NCBI GenBank assembly: GCA_036732245.1
Contig: DAINCT010000001.1
Coordinates: forward strand, 1 to 35,746
Reading direction: 5' to 3'
Length of the DNA: 35,746 bases
Source of the DNA: Chloroflexota bacterium
GTDB lineage: Bacteria > Chloroflexota > UBA5177
Below are positions 27,190 through 35,746 of the stretch, in pieces. How positions within the stretch are numbered: position 1 is the first letter of the stretch; each line of letters opens with the position of its first letter. Below the pieces are notes generated by a model. That model searched no databases and was not told the DNA's origin. It saw only the letters and a program-made list of their open reading frames with translations. The position numbers and the translations under genes were made by a program.

Positions 27190-27375
27190 ATGGATGACAA
27201 GGAACTGCTTGATGGATTTCGCGCGGGCACTCTCGCTACGTTCCCGCATCGAGACCACGCGCGCACCGCTTACCTGCTTCTCGGAAGCCACGGGGTGGAT
27301 GAGGCCACGCATGTGCTCTCAGACCGCATCCGGGCGATGGCCGTTGCTGTGGGCGCCCCCGGCAAGTTCCATGTC
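27190..27375 (+). pseudogene. N-terminal ~60 aa of a small conserved hypothetical protein, truncated by the Tn3 fragment
   Basis: MDDKELLDGFRAGTLATFPHRDHARTAYLLLGSHGVDEATHVLSDRIRAMAVAVGAPGKFHVT looks protein-like. The remainder of the 130-aa ORF is antisense to Tn3-transposase sequence. Confidence 0.4.
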
Positions 27376-27587
27376 ACGGACAATCGGGCGCGGGTCAGCG
27401 CCGGCATGCTTGGCCGGGTGACGGGCTCGAGGCCGATGTTGCAGGCTTCAGCCAATAGAACGGCGCAAATACTGACATCGAGATCATCGGCCCGTGCGGC
27501 GCCTTCAGAAACGTGGGTGAACTCGGTGAGGAAACCAGTCCAGCCGGCAACTTCGAGGAGCAGTTCGGGCAGATCTATGTGAGGCAC
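27365..27587 (-). mobile_element. Tn3-family transposase internal fragment (~70 aa)
   Basis: IDLPELLLEVAGWTGFLTEFTHVSEGAARADDLDVSICAVLLAEACNIGLEPV...PALTRARLS matches the conserved central region of TnpA(Tn3) proteins. This is from recollection of the family. Confidence 0.65.
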
Positions 27588-27934: not shown

Positions 27935-28230
27935 TTGGAGGCTCTGACCAAATCTGGTGGTCTCCGGATGTCTCGGGAACTCTCGGATTCCCTTGCGTTC
28001 GCAGGGAACCGGACGGTTCGCTTTCCCCGATTGTACGCGGTCAAATCCGGTTGGTCTCAATTGATTCCGGTGGGAAAGTGTTGGGCATCGCATGGCTCCG
28101 TCAGGATTGTTCGTCTGCCATCCAGCCCAATTCTGCTGCGGCCGCGTGACTTGCGGTCCGGCGTTCGATACGCGCTAAGGTTGCGCGCCGTAAGCCGAGT
28201 CCGACGTCTCACAATCTTTACGTGCCCGCC

Positions 28231-29433
28231 CTACTCGACAGCGTCAAGCAACAGATCGAAGCGACGTGAAACAGCTGCGCCCCGACCGAGCACCTTTTTG
28301 AAATCAACGTCTGTTGCAAGCGCCTCGAGGAGTGGCTTCGCTACTGGCGCGCTCTCTTTGATCAAGTCGACTATCAGCGGAGCCGCACTGTTGCTATAAA
28401 AAACTGGGCGCCCAACGCCCGCACCATATCCGCCAGGCTCCCCGACAAAGCAGAGCGCCATCCACTTGATGATGCCCGGAAGCTGAGTCTCCGGTACGGA
28501 GGCCAATCCGCCGTACTCTCCAAGTTGCCGTAGAGGCTCGCCGTGTTCGGCATTGTTACGCCAGCTATAGGTGGTTGCCTCAAGGCCGGCTAGGTAAGCC
28601 GCAAAAAAGTCGCGTCGCTGGGCCTTGCGAAGATAGATGAGGATTCCGGCTTGCTGCGCGACTCTCACATCGGCATCAGTCAGCAGGTTGCGACCCAGTT
28701 TATTTTGAAGATGCTTTGCCAATTCGACCTTGACCGCATCTCGAGAATGCATTGAGAGCGTTCCAAGTACGTTGTAGGCGTTCTGCCGCACGATATCGAG
28801 TTCAGCGAGGTTCAGTGCCCCGGAAACAAGGAGCTTCAGAATCTCCAGTTGACGAGTGTCCGGTGCGTGCCGAAAATCTTCTACCAGACGCCCATCGGCG
28901 GTCACCAATGCCCCAGTCTGAATGATGTCTTTCACTTCAGTTACTTTGATTAGGGTGACCGGATCCTTCGAAAGAACCGCCTCAATGCAAGTGTTGAAAA
29001 TGTAAACACAGTCTTCAAGAGTCGCCTCGTACTCGGAGTCTTCATGCTCGAGATCCTTCCGAATGTCGTATGCGCGGCCGAGGCGTCTCCATTCCGGACG
29101 AGTAAGCAGCCCTATTCGATACGAAAGCTCAATAATCTTGGCGGTCGAATAATTGTCAACGTCTTCGGCACGGTTGACTGGAGGAAGCCCGTGGCTAGCA
29201 GCAGCCTCTTTGGCGATGTCCAGGCCAGCGATATTGATCTTTTCGCGAAGGTCTTGAATTGCCGCATTAAGAAGGCGCTGACAGGCGCTACTCGGATCCA
29301 CAGGAAGCAGTCGCCTGACGCGGTCGATTAGCCCCTTGGCCTGCCACGCTGGTCGAATCCGCAACATAAGTGACGATATATTGCCGTCGGATACAACGTC
29401 TGTTGTGTTACGTGCAGCTTCTAACTGGCTCAT
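28231..29433 (-). CDS. Hypothetical 400-aa all-helical protein, lower G+C than neighbours; family not recognised
   Basis: Long ORF. ATGA overlap with the upstream 82-aa ORF. Contains one R-x4-H (IRKDLEHED), which is weak evidence on its own. Confidence 0.7.
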   Translation of the reverse strand: MSQLEAARNTTDVVSDGNISSLMLRIRPAWQAKGLIDRVRRLLPVDPSSACQRLLNAAIQDLREKINIAGLDIAKEAAASHGLPPVNRAEDVDNYSTAKIIELSYRIGLLTRPEWRRLGRAYDIRKDLEHEDSEYEATLEDCVYIFNTCIEAVLSKDPVTLIKVTEVKDIIQTGALVTADGRLVEDFRHAPDTRQLEILKLLVSGALNLAELDIVRQNAYNVLGTLSMHSRDAVKVELAKHLQNKLGRNLLTDADVRVAQQAGILIYLRKAQRRDFFAAYLAGLEATTYSWRNNAEHGEPLRQLGEYGGLASVPETQLPGIIKWMALCFVGEPGGYGAGVGRPVFYSNSAAPLIVDLIKESAPVAKPLLEALATDVDFKKVLGRGAAVSRRFDLLLDAVE

Positions 29434-29678
29434 CGTTCCCTCAGACTGTTGGCAAGCCCCACGTTCAACAAATTTGAGTGTAACTTGATCTTTCCGCCAA
29501 AGCGCGCCAACATCGGCGAGATGCGCACGTGATGCTCGTCGAAAAGGTCGGGCTTCGATAAAGGGCGTTCTTCAAGCCAAAAGGCGTTCTTCGAGGCGCT
29601 TCCTAGTACCAACTTGTACAGGGACAGTCCGCCGAGTTCGCCGTCTTGGTAGCAAGTTCTTCTGAATGTGGTCGGCAT
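29430..29678 (-). CDS. Hypothetical 82-aa protein, translationally coupled to the 400-aa gene
   Basis: ORF in track. Its stop overlaps the next start (ATGA at 29430-29433). It lies 60 nt downstream of the hsdR stop. No homology was recognised. Confidence 0.45.
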   Translation of the reverse strand: MPTTFRRTCYQDGELGGLSLYKLVLGSASKNAFWLEERPLSKPDLFDEHHVRISPMLARFGGKIKLHSNLLNVGLANSLRER

Positions 29679-29738
29679 TTCCCACAGATGAAAGACGCCC
29701 CTAGCATCCCACCCGCGCCCAGCGAAGCCACCGCCGCC

Positions 29739-32700
29739 TCATGCGCCCGAACCCCGGTCGTCGGCGTACCGCGGCGCCATCGATTCCATCTGATCCATTA
29801 CGAGCTTGATCGCATCGGGCTGCTTGTCCGGCGGGTACTTGTATTTGACGAGGAGGCGTTTGATCGATGACCGCAGCTTCGCCCGTACGTCGTCGCGAAC
29901 TGTCCAGTCAGTGCGCACGTCGCGGCGCATCACTGATACGAGTTCACGTGCGATCTGCGCCAGCACGTCTTCTCCCTGGCCGGTGACAGCGGATTCGTTC
30001 TGCGCAACCGCGTCGTAGAAGGCAAGTTCGTCGTTCGAGAGCGGGGGCGAGAAGCGCCCGCCGCGGGATGCCTCGGCAGCAACTTCCTTCGCGAGCTCGA
30101 CCAGCTCTGCGATGACCTCCGCCGCGGAGAGCTGCTGGTTCGTGTATCGCTTCATGATCTCGGCTATGCGCTCCGAGAATGCGCGCTGGCGAATGAGGTT
30201 CCCCTGCGTTACGCCGGACCCGGCGTCGACGAGCGACTTGCGCAGCGCCTCGATCGCAAGGTGCGCGTTCGGCGTTGCCTGCGCCTTCGCGAGGAACTCC
30301 GGACCGAGATCGTCGAGCGAAAGTCGCGGCAGCCCGGCGGCGTCGTAGATGTCGAGCACGTCGCCGGTCGACATCGCCTCGGCGACCAGGCCGCTCAGCA
30401 GGCGCTCGATCTCCTTTGGCACCGGCTCGTCGCGCGACTGCCTTTCCATGGCATCGAACTTCGCCATCCACACACGCACTTCTTCGTAGAAGGCGATCTC
30501 ATCGTGAATCTCGGCGAGCCCAACTCGGCCCGAACTCAGCGCCCACGCGCGAGCGAGCGGACCGCTCGCGGCGCGGTAGCGATTCGCGAGCCGGTCGGCG
30601 CCGAGCTCGGGGTCGTTGAGTGGGTTCGCCGCATCCCGCAGAAAGTTCGTCACCGTAGTCGCCGCCGTGAGCATGGCGCGCGGCCCGCCGCGTCGGATGA
30701 CCGCACGCCAATCGCAGTCGGCGAGCATGCCACGGATCTGCGCGACGAGTTCGGTCGCGATCGCCACGGCCTCGTCGACGTCGCGACCGACCGGCCGATT
30801 CGCTTGATCGGCGACCGTGTACTCAGAGAGGGCTTTGGCGAGGTTCTCGGCGAGCGGCGCGTACGCGACGAGCAGACCGTCCTCCTTGCCCTCGAAGGTG
30901 CGGTTCACACGGGCGAGCGTCTGCATGAGCAGCGCGCCCTTGAGCGGGCGATCCAGGTAGAGGGTGTGCAGTGGGGGCGCGTCGAAGCCCGTGAGCATCA
31001 TGTCCTTGACTATGACGAGTTCGAGTTCGTCCGAAGCGTCCTTCAGACGGTCCTTGATCGCCGCGTTCGCGGAGTCCCGACGCACGTGGTCGATGACCGG
31101 CGGATGGTCGGTCGCCGATCCTGAGTAGACCACTTTGATCTTTCCGCCGTCGAGTGTGTCGGAGTGCCAGTCGGGTCGCAGCGCAACAATCGCCGAGTAC
31201 AGGCGCGCGCAAATCTCGCGTGTGCCGCCCACGATGAGCGCCTTTCCCGGAGATCCGACAAACGGGAGCATGCGAGCGCGGCGCTCTTCCCAGTGCGTGA
31301 TCAGATCACCAGCGAGAGTCTCAATGCGCTCTGGTGACCCGTACACGGCATTGACGACAGCGACGGACGCCTCGATCCTGGCGCGCTCGGTGTCGTCGAG
31401 TCCGAGGGTGTACTCGTCAGCGGCGCGATCGATATCCTCGTCGGTCGTACCCTCGGCGAACGACACCTTGATGAGACGCGGCTCGAAGTACACGGGAACT
31501 GTCGCCCCGTCATCGACTGCCCGGGTCAGGTCGTAAATGTCGATGTAGTCGCCGAAGACGGCTTGCGTGTCGCGCTCGGCGAACGAGATCGGAGTTCCAG
31601 TGAATGCGATGAGGGTAGCATTCGGCAACGCGTCTCGCAGGTGGCGTGCATAGCCATCGAGGTCGTCGTAGTGGCTTCGGTGCGCTTCGTCAACGATGAC
31701 GATCACGTTGCGTCGATCCGTCAGCAGGGGATGCTGAGTGCCCGACTGTTTCTCCGATTCGGTCAGCCCGAACTTCTGTAGCGTCGTGAAGTAGATGCCG
31801 CCGGTCACTCGCTGACTGAGCTCGTCGCGCAGCTGCGCGCGATCCCGCACCTGCACCGCCTTCTCGGCGAGCAGCAGGCTCCGGTGGAACGAGCCAAAGA
31901 GCTGACCATCAAGTTCGTTTCGGTCAGTCACAACGATGACGGTGGGGTTCCTGAGCTTCGGATGGCGCGACACCAGATTCGTGTACAGCTCCATCTCCAT
32001 CGACTTGCCCGAGCCCTGAGTGTGCCAGACGACGCCGGCCTTGCCGTTGGTCTCGACTGCCTGGATCGTGCTCCCGACCGCTTTGGTCACGGCGAAATAC
32101 TGGTGGGGCTTCGCGATGCGCTTGACGAGCCCGTCGGAGCCCTCGTCAAAGGCGGTGAAGCTGCGCACGAGCTGCAGAAAGCGCTCCTGGTTGTAGAGGC
32201 CATTGAGCGCGTCGTCGAGAGGAAGCACGTCAAGATCGCCTTCGATGCGCGGTTGCTTCAGCGGAGCACCGTCATCGTCAACATTCCACGGCGCGAAGTG
32301 GTTGAGCGGCGTGAACGGCGTACCGTACCTCGCATCAAGTCCATCGCTCGCGAGAGTGAAGGCGCAAAACCGGAACGCCGTGGGGAACTCGCGCAGGTAG
32401 GTCTGCAGCTGCGCGTGCGCCGGAGCGACCCCGGTGGATGCCGAACCGGCCTTCTTGAGCTCGATAATACTCAGCGGCATGCCGTTGACATAGAGCACGA
32501 TATCGAACCGGCGATGCAGATCGGCGTGCCGGATCGTGACCTGGTTGACCGCCAGCCAGTCATTCTTTTCCGGCGCGCCGAGCAGCCGAATGCGCGGGTT
32601 CTGCTCGAGGCCGTCGCTATCGATGTAGCTGAGCGGATAGCCGCCAACTAGATACTCGTGTATGCGGTGGTTCTCGGTGATCGCGTCGAGCGATTTGGGT

Positions 32701-32924
32701 GCAGCAATCTCAGCGACCGCCTGTTGCAAGAAGGGTGTCGGCACGTCGGGGTTCAGCCGCCGCATCGCGTCGAGCAGGCGGGGACGAATAAGTAGTTCAT
32801 CCCAGGTCTCGCGCTCGGCACTTCCGGGGGCGATCTCTTCGCCGCGTTTCGGCACCCAGAGAAGCGGCTCGGCGAGGGCTTCGAGAGTCGCCTGCTCCCA
32901 GTCGGCTTCGGAGATGCCGGTCAT
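29739..32924 (-). CDS. hsdR: Type I restriction enzyme R subunit (HsdR)
   Basis: N-terminal PD-(D/E)xK region (RFDIVLYVNGMPLSIIELKK). Helicase motifs HTQGSGKSMEM, VIVDEAHRSH and FTGTPI. Start trimmed to ATG 32924 (MTGISEADWEQ...), which overlaps the TGA of the GTPase gene. The 1208-aa track ORF is an Arg-rich upstream extension. Confidence 0.9.
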   Translation of the reverse strand: MTGISEADWEQATLEALAEPLLWVPKRGEEIAPGSAERETWDELLIRPRLLDAMRRLNPDVPTPFLQQAVAEIAAPKSLDAITENHRIHEYLVGGYPLSYIDSDGLEQNPRIRLLGAPEKNDWLAVNQVTIRHADLHRRFDIVLYVNGMPLSIIELKKAGSASTGVAPAHAQLQTYLREFPTAFRFCAFTLASDGLDARYGTPFTPLNHFAPWNVDDDGAPLKQPRIEGDLDVLPLDDALNGLYNQERFLQLVRSFTAFDEGSDGLVKRIAKPHQYFAVTKAVGSTIQAVETNGKAGVVWHTQGSGKSMEMELYTNLVSRHPKLRNPTVIVVTDRNELDGQLFGSFHRSLLLAEKAVQVRDRAQLRDELSQRVTGGIYFTTLQKFGLTESEKQSGTQHPLLTDRRNVIVIVDEAHRSHYDDLDGYARHLRDALPNATLIAFTGTPISFAERDTQAVFGDYIDIYDLTRAVDDGATVPVYFEPRLIKVSFAEGTTDEDIDRAADEYTLGLDDTERARIEASVAVVNAVYGSPERIETLAGDLITHWEERRARMLPFVGSPGKALIVGGTREICARLYSAIVALRPDWHSDTLDGGKIKVVYSGSATDHPPVIDHVRRDSANAAIKDRLKDASDELELVIVKDMMLTGFDAPPLHTLYLDRPLKGALLMQTLARVNRTFEGKEDGLLVAYAPLAENLAKALSEYTVADQANRPVGRDVDEAVAIATELVAQIRGMLADCDWRAVIRRGGPRAMLTAATTVTNFLRDAANPLNDPELGADRLANRYRAASGPLARAWALSSGRVGLAEIHDEIAFYEEVRVWMAKFDAMERQSRDEPVPKEIERLLSGLVAEAMSTGDVLDIYDAAGLPRLSLDDLGPEFLAKAQATPNAHLAIEALRKSLVDAGSGVTQGNLIRQRAFSERIAEIMKRYTNQQLSAAEVIAELVELAKEVAAEASRGGRFSPPLSNDELAFYDAVAQNESAVTGQGEDVLAQIARELVSVMRRDVRTDWTVRDDVRAKLRSSIKRLLVKYKYPPDKQPDAIKLVMDQMESMAPRYADDRGSGA

Positions 32925-34123
32925 GGCTTTGCCGTGTGTTGTGCAGTCATCTTTCGGATGACGTCGAGGAAGGACGGGGCGTATGCTCCCCAGGATTCTG
33001 TGATCTCGTCCAGATCGAGCTTGCCGGTGTGGACCTGTTCGCATAGTCGCACCCACCCCTCTCCGGTGGCGGCCGTGAGCGCGAATGCAACGCCCGCGCC
33101 CACGACGCTTCCTGCGCCGGGGATCAGCTTGAGGAAGCTGCGCGCCAGCGCCTGCCCCGTAATCTGGACACCTAGCTGCGCGAGGGCTCCAGCGGAGAGC
33201 ATGGTCTTGAGCTCGAGGTCGTAAATGGCCGCAATGCGCCCCATCATCGTCAGTTGGATCGGCGCCAGAATTGCGGCGTCCGCGACAGGAACGGGAATCG
33301 CGGCGGCAGCGGCGGCTGCCGACGCGGCTGCCACGATGGCGGGCCGAGCCATCTCGCGCTTCCACGGGAGGTTGAGTCGCTGAGCAACGCGAAAGGCATC
33401 CTTCTCGTTGTCGGGCGAGAGCGCGAGGGTCTCGGTGACGAGCTCACCGAGGCCGTGCCCCGTGCCCTTTCCGTGCTTTCCGGTCGCTGAAGTCAGGATG
33501 ACCCGCTGGATGGGGATGTCGAGCGTCACGCCATGCTCGTCGACCGGATTTTCTAACCAGTCGCGGAACTCTTCGACGTCCTTCGGGGCCGTGCGCTTGC
33601 CTGTCACCGGGTTCTTGGTCCAGTCGACCTTGGTCAGAACGAGAATGACCGGCAGACCCGCGGCATCCATTTCCCTGATCATTTCGATGTCGGGAGCCGT
33701 GAGACGCGGGAGCTGAGACAGCACACAGTACCAGACGACCGAGACCTGCTCGATGGCTGGTCTCTCCGAGATCGTCTTCAGGTGCTTTCGGAGGATGTCG
33801 GCCGGGGCTTCGCGCGACCCGATCTCGAAGCCTTCAAGATCCCAAATTCCGAGCGAGTCATCATCGAAGTAGTGCACTCCCCGGGTCACAGGCAGTCCTT
33901 TGCCTACTTTCGCCAGGTCACGCCCGAACACCGCGTTGACGAGTGACGACTTACCGACGCCCGTTCCGCCGACGATAGCGAGATTGAAACGGCCATACTT
34001 CGACTTCGCCTGCGAATTCGCCTCGATAAATGGTGTGTCATCGATTTCGGCCGCATCGTCCGCGCGATCTTCTGGCTCGGTCGCCATGTTGGGGTTCTCC
34101 TTCTTTTCGTTTTCTGAAGTCAT
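32921..34123 (-). CDS. GTPase (MMR_HSR1/YfjP-like G domain) fused to a DUF697-like Ala/Gly-rich membrane-associating C-terminal domain
   Basis: G1 GGTGVGKSS, G3 WDLEG, G4 TKVD. The C-terminus ...AAIPVPVADAAILAPIQLTMMGRIAAIYDL...LKLIPGAGSVVGAGVAFALTAATGEGW... resembles DUF697 (YcjF-type) by recollection. Confidence 0.8.
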   Translation of the reverse strand: MTSENEKKENPNMATEPEDRADDAAEIDDTPFIEANSQAKSKYGRFNLAIVGGTGVGKSSLVNAVFGRDLAKVGKGLPVTRGVHYFDDDSLGIWDLEGFEIGSREAPADILRKHLKTISERPAIEQVSVVWYCVLSQLPRLTAPDIEMIREMDAAGLPVILVLTKVDWTKNPVTGKRTAPKDVEEFRDWLENPVDEHGVTLDIPIQRVILTSATGKHGKGTGHGLGELVTETLALSPDNEKDAFRVAQRLNLPWKREMARPAIVAAASAAAAAAAIPVPVADAAILAPIQLTMMGRIAAIYDLELKTMLSAGALAQLGVQITGQALARSFLKLIPGAGSVVGAGVAFALTAATGEGWVRLCEQVHTGKLDLDEITESWGAYAPSFLDVIRKMTAQHTAKP

Positions 34124-34193
34124 TTCCTGAACTCAGGGCCAAGGGGGCTCCCTGAGCGAATCGTCGTGAGGACATTGTCATTTGTCGACCGGA

Positions 34194-35474
34194 TCAGGAG
34201 CCCGCGGCGGATGCTGCGGCTTCAGCATCGCGGACGCGGAGCCGGCCCGACATGAGATGCGGGAGTAGTGCGTCGCGTGTCGCGGCGAGGGTACGGTTCT
34301 CTTCGGATGTAGCGAACACCGCCTCGCGAAGTGGCGCGGCGATCAACTCGAAGCCTTCGATCACCTCTGCCGATGCCGCGGGAGCGGGCGCGCCGAGAAA
34401 GCGGTCTGCCCGAACGGCGGGGTAGGCGCTACCCTCTGCAACGTTCTCGAGGTAGGCGGTGAAATCGGGCCGCTTTGTCACCTCATAGAGGTATGCGAAG
34501 CCGACTCGTTTTGGAGTGAGCACAGCAAGTCCAGTTGAAGCCACGAGCATCGGGTCGTCGGCAAGGTTGAGCGCGTGCGATCGGCGATTTGGACGGACGG
34601 TGGACCAAATGACATCGCCGCGCCGGAGGGCCCGCCGGGCGCGGCCTGGCGCCTCGTCCCAGTCAGTGACACTTGGGTACTCAAAAACGCCGACACCGAC
34701 CGACGCGATGTCTACGTAACGCAACTGGCCGCCGACGATCGGCTTAACTGCCAACTCGTTCACGGCCGCGATGTGGCCCAGGTTTGTCTTGTCTGGCGTC
34801 TGGCCCAGCAGTTCCTCGAGCAACGTCGCGAGGTAGCGGTCCACAGTCTCGGCGAGGGCGGAGTTGGCGGCGATCTTGTCATCGAGCGAACCCAGCACCT
34901 GGGCGACCGCCTGCTGCTCCGTCGGCGAAGGAAGCAATCCATGAAGCGCTTTTGCGTCGGGGTAGTACATAGTCGCGTGCACCGACCCGTGGGCGAATCG
35001 CCGCACGCTATCTGACTCGGACATGAGTAGGTAGCGGAGGTAATTGGGGTTGAGACCGGGGCCGCACACCCAGTTCACGAAGTCTTGGCTTGTCGCCATC
35101 GGACGTCCGAGTTGCACCACATAGCCGACAGACGCCGTGCGGGAGAGGCACACTGTGCCAGTAGGAAGCAATCTGGCCGAAGAGTTGTCGATTCCGGACT
35201 GGCTGACATGCTGATCCGTGTCGAATATGACGCGACCATGGTTGCCGGTTGCGTCTCGGATTCCGACCCAAGGAATGCCGTCGTCCCAATAGTCAGGACG
35301 ACTCCGCGACGGCGTGTGACCACTCTCCAACCGGGCGACCTCCGAGAGTGGTGTCCAAGCGAAGCCGTCGGGTTCGGGGAGGGTCGTAGGGCGGCCGATG
35401 CTGAGAGACGCGATGCCTGGCACGACGGCATCAGTTGCGCGGCGGCCTCCAGTGGCTGTTTCTCGGCGGGCCAT
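34194..35474 (-). CDS. hsdS: Type I restriction-modification specificity subunit (HsdS), two target-recognition domains
   Basis: Two TRD-like halves separated by a conserved helical spacer (...EQQAVAQVLGSLDDKIAANSAL...). C-terminal ...LLPHLMSGRLRV. ATG 35474 shares a base with the hsdM TGA. The track uses GTG 35477. Confidence 0.9.
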   Translation of the reverse strand: MARRETATGGRRATDAVVPGIASLSIGRPTTLPEPDGFAWTPLSEVARLESGHTPSRSRPDYWDDGIPWVGIRDATGNHGRVIFDTDQHVSQSGIDNSSARLLPTGTVCLSRTASVGYVVQLGRPMATSQDFVNWVCGPGLNPNYLRYLLMSESDSVRRFAHGSVHATMYYPDAKALHGLLPSPTEQQAVAQVLGSLDDKIAANSALAETVDRYLATLLEELLGQTPDKTNLGHIAAVNELAVKPIVGGQLRYVDIASVGVGVFEYPSVTDWDEAPGRARRALRRGDVIWSTVRPNRRSHALNLADDPMLVASTGLAVLTPKRVGFAYLYEVTKRPDFTAYLENVAEGSAYPAVRADRFLGAPAPAASAEVIEGFELIAAPLREAVFATSEENRTLAATRDALLPHLMSGRLRVRDAEAAASAAGS

Positions 35475-35746
35475 CACACTCGGCCCAGCTGTTCGCGCAC
35501 GACGTCGGCCAGCCGTGACGACTCGGCGAACTGGGCTTCCAACTCTGCGAGGAGCCGTGCGAGCTTCTCCTCGATCGGCTCGCCGTCATTTACTTCGTCC
35601 GGGGCGCCGACGTAGCGGCCAGGTGTGAGGGCGTAGTCGGCTGCCTTGATCTCGGCAAGCGTCGCGGTGTAGGCGAAGCCTGGAACATCCGCGTACTCGT
35701 CGAGCGCGGCGTCCGATTCGATTCCTCGCCATGCATGGAACGTGCC
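35474..35746 (-). CDS. hsdM: Type I R-M DNA methyltransferase subunit (HsdM), C-terminal end only (gene continues beyond the window)
   Basis: Hand translation: ...GTFHAWRGIESDAALDEYADVPGFAYTATLAEIKAADYALTPGRYVGAPDEVNDGEPIEEKLARLLAELEAQFAESSRLADVVREQLGRV-stop. The ...GF...EI...DY.LTPGRYVG block is the classic HsdM C-terminus. Confidence 0.85.
   Translation of the reverse strand, partial: GTFHAWRGIESDAALDEYADVPGFAYTATLAEIKAADYALTPGRYVGAPDEVNDGEPIEEKLARLLAELEAQFAESSRLADVVREQLGRV

Follow-up and report, generated by a model that had tools for sequence, protein, structure and literature searches.

A GTPase-DUF697 gene between hsdS and hsdR is a candidate accessory defense gene of a type I restriction-modification operon

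A type I restriction-modification (R-M) operon in a 35,746-nucleotide (nt) stretch of contig DAINCT010000001.1 (GenBank assembly GCA_036732245.1, a Chloroflexota bacterium) contains an additional gene between hsdS and hsdR. This gene, which we call X (positions 32921-34123 of the stretch, hereafter the window), encodes a protein in which a small GTPase domain is fused to a DUF697 domain. We tentatively propose, at a confidence a little short of even, that X is an embedded accessory anti-phage gene whose product acts at the membrane under GTP control; its membrane location, its defense function and its mode of action are all things that we infer. Defense genes embedded in R-M operons have already been described, and X fits among them as a family not yet listed. 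The GTPase-DUF697 family to which it belongs is large and has no member of known function, so the window locus and its relatives offer a first contextual handle on it: one branch of the family is repeatedly retained inside or beside restriction and other defense systems, and in phage-plasmids.

The hsdS-hsdR junction as a cargo slot

On the minus strand the gene order is hsdM, hsdS, X and hsdR. The hsdS stop codon (34194) is separated by 70 nt from the ATG at 34123 that opens the X reading frame, and the TGA stop codon of X shares an ATGA overlap (32921-32924, minus strand) with the ATG of hsdR. Reading of the sequence and its open reading frames (ORFs), together with Pfam and PADLOC matches, agrees with the original prediction on the order, the gap and the coupling to hsdR. 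The prediction had also compared this position with that of prrC, the anticodon nuclease gene found between hsdS and hsdR in EcoprrI.

The hsdS-hsdR junction of this Microbacteriaceae type I R-M lineage is a general docking slot, mostly for cargo of the defense, abortive infection (Abi) or toxin type. A reverse query of metagenome contigs with the N-terminal 400 amino acids (aa) of HsdR returned 69 loci in which both the end of hsdS and the start of hsdR are visible. The slot is empty (less than 200 nt) in 37 of these, holds X in 12 and holds other genes in 20. All 12 X-bearing loci fall within one subclade, defined by an HsdR with 80% or higher identity to that of the window; there X fills 12 of 26 slots, seven are empty, and X is the second-commonest protein-coding cargo after a partner gene, c9 (15 slots). 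At least 10 unrelated cargo types occur across the lineage. They include a YhcG/DUF1016 PDDEXK nuclease (seven loci), a 5'-nucleotidase that is the PADLOC candidate PDC-S08 (E = 3e-132), a DUF3644 protein that is PDC-S19 (E = 8e-84), an AbiEi pair (AbiE), Fic, an RNase_T-BRCT exonuclease, and DUF3037 with HipA_2 (a HipA-like kinase). In several loci, genes other than X sit between X and hsdR. We regard the junction as a general docking site because it accepts so many unrelated genes and because c9 also pairs there with proteins unrelated to X.

The c9 gene encodes a protein of ~210 aa with one transmembrane helix and a weak likeness to DUF4230. Among the close relatives described below it precedes X in 16 loci, usually with a 4-nt overlap; it is absent from the window. 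A Foldseek search with its AlphaFold2 (AF2) model (mean predicted local distance difference test score, pLDDT, 83) gives no PDB match below E = 0.28. In the slot, c9 is sometimes followed by one of two other proteins instead of X. The first is a coiled-coil protein of 434-441 aa (L092:2727-4031, L096:8674-9999 and L110:8340-9656, all plus strand), and the second is an Ala/Gly-rich protein of 386-399 aa (L113:8844-10004 and L114:8805-10004, both plus strand). Neither has a Pfam match. We considered whether these partners (441 and 386 aa) could be hidden relatives of X and rejected the idea, the hhalign probability being 0.2% for each. It may be that c9 is a shared partner for interchangeable second components.

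Close relatives and their neighborhoods

A scan of one genome per species recovered 78 loci encoding close relatives of X (49-86% identity), nearly all from Microbacteriaceae. Neighboring genes were called by GC3 bias and clustered, and the cluster representatives were annotated. X lies within the hsdS-hsdR slot in 14 of 75 species-level loci, always in the lineage to which the HsdR of the window belongs, at 81-92% identity to that protein. The 4-nt overlap between X and hsdR is found in six loci (the window, L001 from Leifsonia sp. McL0618, L003, L008, L012 and L015), and the hsd-embedded copies are dispersed across the X tree instead of forming one clade.

The X lineage also has defense associations that are independent of the window-type hsd lineage. 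On deeper branches of the tree, X adjoins a second hsd lineage (L019), a type ISP R-M system with PDC-S08 (L069), or giant DEAD+MZB and SNF2 helicases (L068 and L070), and in L005, L066 and L070 its neighbors are GmrSD and NERD-UvrD genes. The result named beforehand as one that would count against a defense role was a family whose members show no association with R-M or defense loci. For the close relatives that association is present, with 14 of 75 copies in the slot and others beside defense genes.

Purifying selection acts on gene X, which has diverged in parallel with hsdR. The dN/dS ratio between the window gene and six hsd-embedded orthologues is 0.12-0.20, and the dS values of X and hsdR in the same locus pairs are similar (0.72 versus 0.61, 1.01 versus 0.99, and 1.43 versus 1.10). 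Since dN/dS is low and the dS of X tracks that of hsdR, the gene has long been carried with the operon and is kept functional in it. A correlation of X and HsdR distances (Spearman 0.27, 120 pairs) included one unrelated HsdR (L006), and for this reason we give preference to the pairwise dS comparison.

Domain architecture and predicted structure

The two domains originally assigned to X from its sequence, a small GTPase and DUF697, are both borne out by Pfam profile hidden Markov models, by the family alignment and by precomputed annotation. MMR_HSR1 matches aa 48-165 with 36.7 bits (cutoff 21.9). DUF697 matches aa 246-363 with 27.1 bits, slightly below its cutoff of 27.7, and the call is nevertheless sound because the profile matches 71 of 71 aligned family members (best E = 2e-12). 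An identical database protein has both domains in its precomputed Pfam annotation.

The G domain (aa 46-223; 33455-33988, minus strand) belongs to the Era/EngA/EngB/septin-like TRAFAC class, as judged from the MMR_HSR1 match, sequence-profile matches to PDB entries (EngA, 3e-11; EngB, 1e-8; septins, Era and IRG) and the order of strands and helices in the model. Conservation of its motifs was scored in two homologue alignments, A1 and A2, of 71-80 sequences. Residues of G1 (G52-S59), G2 (T80), G3 (D95-G98) and G4 (T164-D167) vary little or not at all in homologues down to ~27% identity. In the G1 P-loop, GGTGVGKS (aa 52-59; 33947-33970, minus strand), G52, G55, G57 and K58 are invariant both in 80 and in 71 homologues. 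In the G3 motif, DLEG (aa 95-98; 33830-33841, minus strand), D95 and G98 are invariant, and the motif is followed by the hydrophobic F99 and by E100, which is invariant or nearly so. A hydrophobic residue in this place after DxxG is also a trait of the Era/EngA/EngB and septin-like group (HAS-GTPases). The G4 motif, TKVD (aa 164-167; 33623-33634, minus strand), has an invariant or nearly invariant T164 and a V166 that is invariant in A2; the wider family has TQ at the G4 position.

The DUF697 region (aa 246-363; 33035-33388, minus strand) consists of Ala/Gly-rich helices and is all-helical in the model. Three uncharged stretches of 21-22 residues (aa 261-281, 307-327 and 333-354) occur in it, and P277, P279, D282, Q290 and P335 are invariant, with Pro/Asp turns at P277, P279, D282 and P335. 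The hydropathy maximum, 1.97, is at aa 262. The most likely location of the domain is within the cytoplasmic membrane or on its surface.

An AF2 model of X built from 71 sequences (pLDDT 80.7; predicted template modeling score, pTM, 0.79) has an N-terminal helix (aa 30-43), the G domain (aa 46-223) and an all-helical C-terminal half (aa 225-398). The best full-length Foldseek matches to this model are Irga6, Irgb6 and Irgb10, with template modeling scores (TM-scores) of 0.45-0.47 over ~390 columns and E values of ~1e-8. These vertebrate IRG (p47) proteins act on membranes in immunity, and X shares their plan of an N-terminal helix, a G domain and a C-terminal helical domain. The root-mean-square deviation (rmsd) is nevertheless ~10 A, and sequence similarity is confined to the G domain. 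We treat the likeness as a lead and not as proof of homology because the TM-scores are below 0.5 and the Pfam IIGP profile is matched by only three of the 71 family members.

The reading frame of 400 aa that was originally assigned to X is intact, but the protein itself is probably shorter. A second in-frame ATG (Met13, at 34087) is preceded at a distance of 9 nt by an AAGGAG Shine-Dalgarno sequence (34097-34102), and homologues, mostly of 384-388 aa, generally lack the first 12 codons of the frame. For these two reasons Met13 is probably the true start; translation would then begin 12 codons downstream of the annotated ATG (34123), the product would have 388 aa and the hsdS-X spacer (34088-34193, minus strand) would widen to 106 nt. 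The N-terminal tail that follows (aa 14-31; 34031-34084, minus strand) is poorly conserved and predicted to be disordered, with pLDDT below 50 at residues 11-23. Its acidic character, remarked on from the start, is evident in the charge count of eight D/E to one R in the 18 residues after Met13, and the net charge of the 22 residues preceding F32 is -7. Mean tail charge is -3.9 in hsd-embedded and c9-linked copies (n = 28) versus -1.1 in the others (n = 59), a difference that is confounded by phylogeny in being carried by one large clade. Acidic tails are also present outside hsd loci, and we rejected the tail as a marker of hsd linkage and did not use it as evidence.

Relationship to known systems

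Type I R-M, BREX, DISARM and Hma operons frequently harbor additional defense genes within them, in most cases oriented like the operon itself, and the majority of the inserted genes that were tested turned out to be defensive (Payne et al., bioRxiv 10.1101/2024.01.29.577857). TgvAB in the Vibrio cholerae island VPI-2 is a worked example within an R-M operon (PMC11411939). Like PrrC, TgvAB and the PDC candidates, X has core hsd genes on both sides, shares their strand and is presumably expressed together with them, and related loci hold PDC-S08, PDC-S19, AbiE, Fic and the YhcG nuclease in the very slot that X occupies. It thus has the three properties on which guilt by embedding is judged, since it sits between core genes of a defense system, is on their strand and is not part of the mobilome. 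That paper makes no mention of a GTPase or of DUF697. Our literature search found no functional work on DUF697 and no link of DUF697 or of this GTPase to defense, and PADLOC gives X weak, partial matches only, in keeping with the initial statement that a combination of a GTPase-DUF697 protein with type I R-M is undescribed.

The comparison with PrrC holds for position and goes little further. PrrC is an anticodon nuclease of the ABC-ATPase type (PMC12707154) and is almost exclusively hsd-embedded (10.1101/2024.01.29.577857). X has the same place between hsdS and hsdR, but it has no ABC-ATPase or anticodon-nuclease domain of the kind found in PrrC and RloC: Pfam, NCBIfam and PADLOC return the GTPase and DUF697 only, with no PrrC or AAA_13-type match. 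These searches likewise uphold the observation that X has no recognizable nuclease. Nor does the X family have the near-exclusive hsd linkage of PrrC, with 14 of 75 close relatives in the slot and none of eight distant relatives near hsd, and the slot itself lacks specificity of the PrrC kind.

DUF697 (PF05128) provides a second comparison. In Enterobacteria, the DUF697 protein YcjF is linked, together with YcjX, to psp operons and a sigma-32 promoter (PMC3041696); we saw no psp linkage of X. Both X and the YcjF-YcjX pair combine an NTPase with a DUF697 module, and Escherichia coli YcjF is an inner-membrane protein paired with the NTPase YcjX. The NTPase of X differs in being fused to the module and in being an Era/septin-type GTPase, not DUF463/YcjX. 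An hhalign comparison of X with YcjF gives a probability of 9.8% over 41 columns, which coincide with the third predicted transmembrane region of the E. coli protein.

Among GTPases, X resembles the Era/EngA/EngB (MMR_HSR1) and septin-like TRAFAC proteins in having G1 to G4 in order, together with the hydrophobic F99 after DxxG, but it has a membrane-type C-terminal domain in place of the KH or other RNA-binding domains of Era-type proteins. It is not an orthologue of Era, Der, EngB or YlqF, as its scores against the NCBIfam equivalogs are 16-37 bits with cutoffs of 116-953 (for example, 37 versus 124 for YsxC). The prophage GTPases YfjP/YeeP/YkfA and LeoA-type dynamin-like proteins had been named in comparison, and the resemblance of X to YfjP and to LeoBC extends to the G domain but not to the full length of either. 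YfjP of prophage CP4-57 aligns from residues 16 to 159 with X aa 24-174 (hhalign probability 96%) and lacks DUF697. The PADLOC profile for Eleos LeoBC matches X at positions 67-187 of 601 only (9e-8), X lacks the dynamin stalk and paddle, and its Pfam Dynamin_N score of 21.1 bits is below the cutoff of 27. LeoBC, YfjP and X are all GTPases from defense or prophage settings, and ~120-140 of their residues align.

Possible functions of X

According to the reading that we favor, X would be co-transcribed with hsdR and translationally coupled to it, and it would act alone, like TgvAB or defense genes of the embedded BrxU type, rather than as a component of the restriction enzyme. Its action at the membrane would be a change controlled by GTP, which could result in growth arrest or abortive infection, or could exclude incoming DNA. 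In many relatives, X would be joined in this by the DUF4230-like single-pass membrane protein c9. A more elaborate version is a long shot: X and its DUF4230-like partner might be a new kind of bacterial immune effector, an IRG-like GTPase which, once the co-encoded type I R-M enzyme is inhibited or overrun, assembles on the membrane of its own cell and so aborts infection, with a helical domain related to that of vertebrate IRGs.

Several observations weigh against an anti-phage role at the membrane. Membrane insertion is argued from two things, hydropathy and the weak YcjF alignment (probability 9.8%). The IRG match has a TM-score below 0.5 and no support from sequence, since Pfam IIGP is matched in three of 71 members with a best E value of 0.013. 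The hsd-linked cases come from a single HsdR lineage, in parallel with which they have diverged, and they may reflect few insertion events. X is not a PADLOC v2 candidate, its matches there being weak and partial (LeoBC G domain, 9e-8; PDC-S30, 0.002), and our literature search found no experimental or anti-phage data for any family member. Many relatives also live in ordinary surroundings. About 30 loci of the Microbacterium testaceum group hold X at one chromosomal site beside pdxH and a HEAT-repeat gene, and several other close relatives are found among ABC transporters, amylases and sugar enzymes, or a P-type ATPase. Each of the eight distant relatives sampled (35-40% identity) has a core chromosomal setting (including bipA, YkuD-SLT-X-PAC2 and ccm), and none lies near hsd.

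PDC-S29 and PDC-S30 were also tried as possible identities for X and were set aside; they match X-like proteins weakly (E = 0.001-0.002), and the papers that we found do not describe these candidates.

The ordinary surroundings raise the alternative that X is a housekeeping or stress GTPase with a job in the envelope or in membrane stress, a mere passenger at a junction that happens to be a recombination hot spot. We consider this unlikely, although it is the alternative that best survives. A threshold of E <= 0.001 gives 3133 representative clusters for the GTPase-DUF697 family and one of E <= 1e-30 gives 174, most of them full-length proteins (360-400 aa); the breadth of this family, the conserved core synteny of its sampled members and the single site kept by the M. 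testaceum clade all fit such a role, as does the link of YcjF and YcjX to psp operons and a sigma-32 promoter. A passenger does not readily account for the purifying selection on X or for its co-divergence with hsdR over a dS of ~1. The other cargo of the slot is nearly all of the defense or toxin type, defense-island neighbors occur repeatedly and independently on deep branches of the X subfamily, and a phage-plasmid carries a homologue.

That homologue is full length (hhalign probability 100%, E = 5e-51) and occurs in SSU5-like phage-plasmids as a lone, divergently oriented gene. An example is L171:6944-8050 (plus strand) on plasmid pECL189-2 of Enterobacter hormaechei (NZ_CP047967.1), where it is surrounded by nrdAB, thyA, dhfr and phage Dam genes. 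The replicons that carry the homologue, in Klebsiella and Enterobacter, measure ~105-128 kb; of 62 matching plasmid records, 36 come from Klebsiella. Searches for X in other viral collections returned little: a tblastn search of 50,697 phage records gave a single partial match to the G domain, PHROGs gave G-domain matches only, and BFVD gave giant-virus GTPases only.

One core arrangement of the distant relatives is common to three actinobacterial lineages (L167:6334-9675; L166 and L169). In it, the X relative is preceded by genes for a YkuD L,D-transpeptidase and for an SLT transglycosylase and followed by genes for a small uncharacterized protein and for a member of the PAC2 family. This synteny hints at an ancestral role related to the envelope.

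The analogy with prrC suggests a different alternative, that X is a guard which HsdMSR keeps inactive and which is freed as a membrane-damaging suicide effector when an Ocr- or ArdA-type protein blocks the complex. PrrC and PARIS are established cases of a guard (PMC12707154), X has the prrC position between hsdS and hsdR, and the ATGA coupling to hsdR is kept in six loci. It is still improbable that X works in this way. X has no similarity to PrrC or RloC, and most of its relatives, unlike PrrC, are not hsd-embedded, with some lying beside unrelated defense systems. At least 10 cargo types have been found in the slot, 37 of the 69 loci have nothing in it, and X is separated from hsdR by other genes in several loci. 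The more acidic tail of hsd-embedded and c9-linked copies would fit a guard, but the charge difference is confounded by phylogeny and acidic tails occur outside hsd as well.

Least convincing among these alternatives, and in our estimate very improbable, is a modulator of R-M that tethers, assembles or regulates HsdR at the membrane (for restriction alleviation or HsdR supply) without defense activity of its own: X translation is coupled to hsdR and X is the most frequent cargo after c9 in the closest HsdR subclade, but no slot gene is present in 37 of 69 loci of the lineage or in seven of 26 in that subclade, most genomes carry X without hsd, and no sequence feature suggests binding to DNA or HsdR.

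If X is indeed anti-phage, the repertoire of genes embedded in type I R-M operons would gain a mechanism based on a membrane GTPase, DUF697 and DUF4230 would acquire a testable function, and the structural likeness of X to eukaryotic IRG proteins would be worth pursuing. Even if X has no part in defense, the locus illustrates cleanly how an hsdS-hsdR junction can serve as a cargo slot. X nevertheless represents just one of a great number of embedded candidate families, and its relatives at large resemble ordinary chromosomal genes.

Other features of the operon and its surroundings

The remaining hsd genes of the window, all on the minus strand, are readily assigned. The 3' end of hsdM (35474-35746) is truncated by the end of the window; its stop codon (35474-35476) overlaps the start of hsdS, and the encoded C-terminus is 60-87% identical to HsdM C-termini in related loci. 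The specificity subunit gene hsdS (34194-35477) is supported by Pfam Methylase_S (E = 5e-10) and PADLOC Specificity_I (E = 1e-55). The restriction subunit gene hsdR (29739-32924) encodes 1061 aa with matches to Pfam HSDR_N, SWI2_SNF2, T1R_D3-like and T1RH-like_C and to PADLOC REase_I (E = 2e-235). A scan of positions 28000-35746 for promoters and terminators placed none at the hsdS-X or X-hsdR junction and gave counts at the level of chance; the promoter rules were those for sigma-70, which are a poor guide for Actinomycetota.

In most hsd-bearing loci, a conserved extra gene of ~650 aa with a helix-turn-helix-like N-terminus and no Pfam match lies just upstream of hsdM. Examples of genes upstream of hsdM are found at L035:4529-6505 (plus strand) and L026:2973-4211 (minus strand), and a divergent DUF2130 gene occurs there too. 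Neither the ~650-aa gene nor the DUF2130 gene is visible in the window, which ends inside hsdM.

Directly 3' of hsdR are two ORFs of 82 and 400 aa that overlap by 4 nt (28231-29678, minus strand). They lie in a patch of low GC content (0.56 versus ~0.63). The pair has no match in Pfam, NCBIfam or PADLOC and no counterpart beside hsdR among the related loci; the 400-aa ORF matches phrog_27609, a family of unknown function (E = 7e-12). The two genes may form another accessory module or one that resembles a toxin-antitoxin system. Farther along, a fragment of a Tn3-family transposase (27270-27587, minus strand) matches the first 64 positions only of the DDE_Tnp_Tn3 profile (E = 2e-14) and is the scar of a mobile element at the edge of the hsd island.

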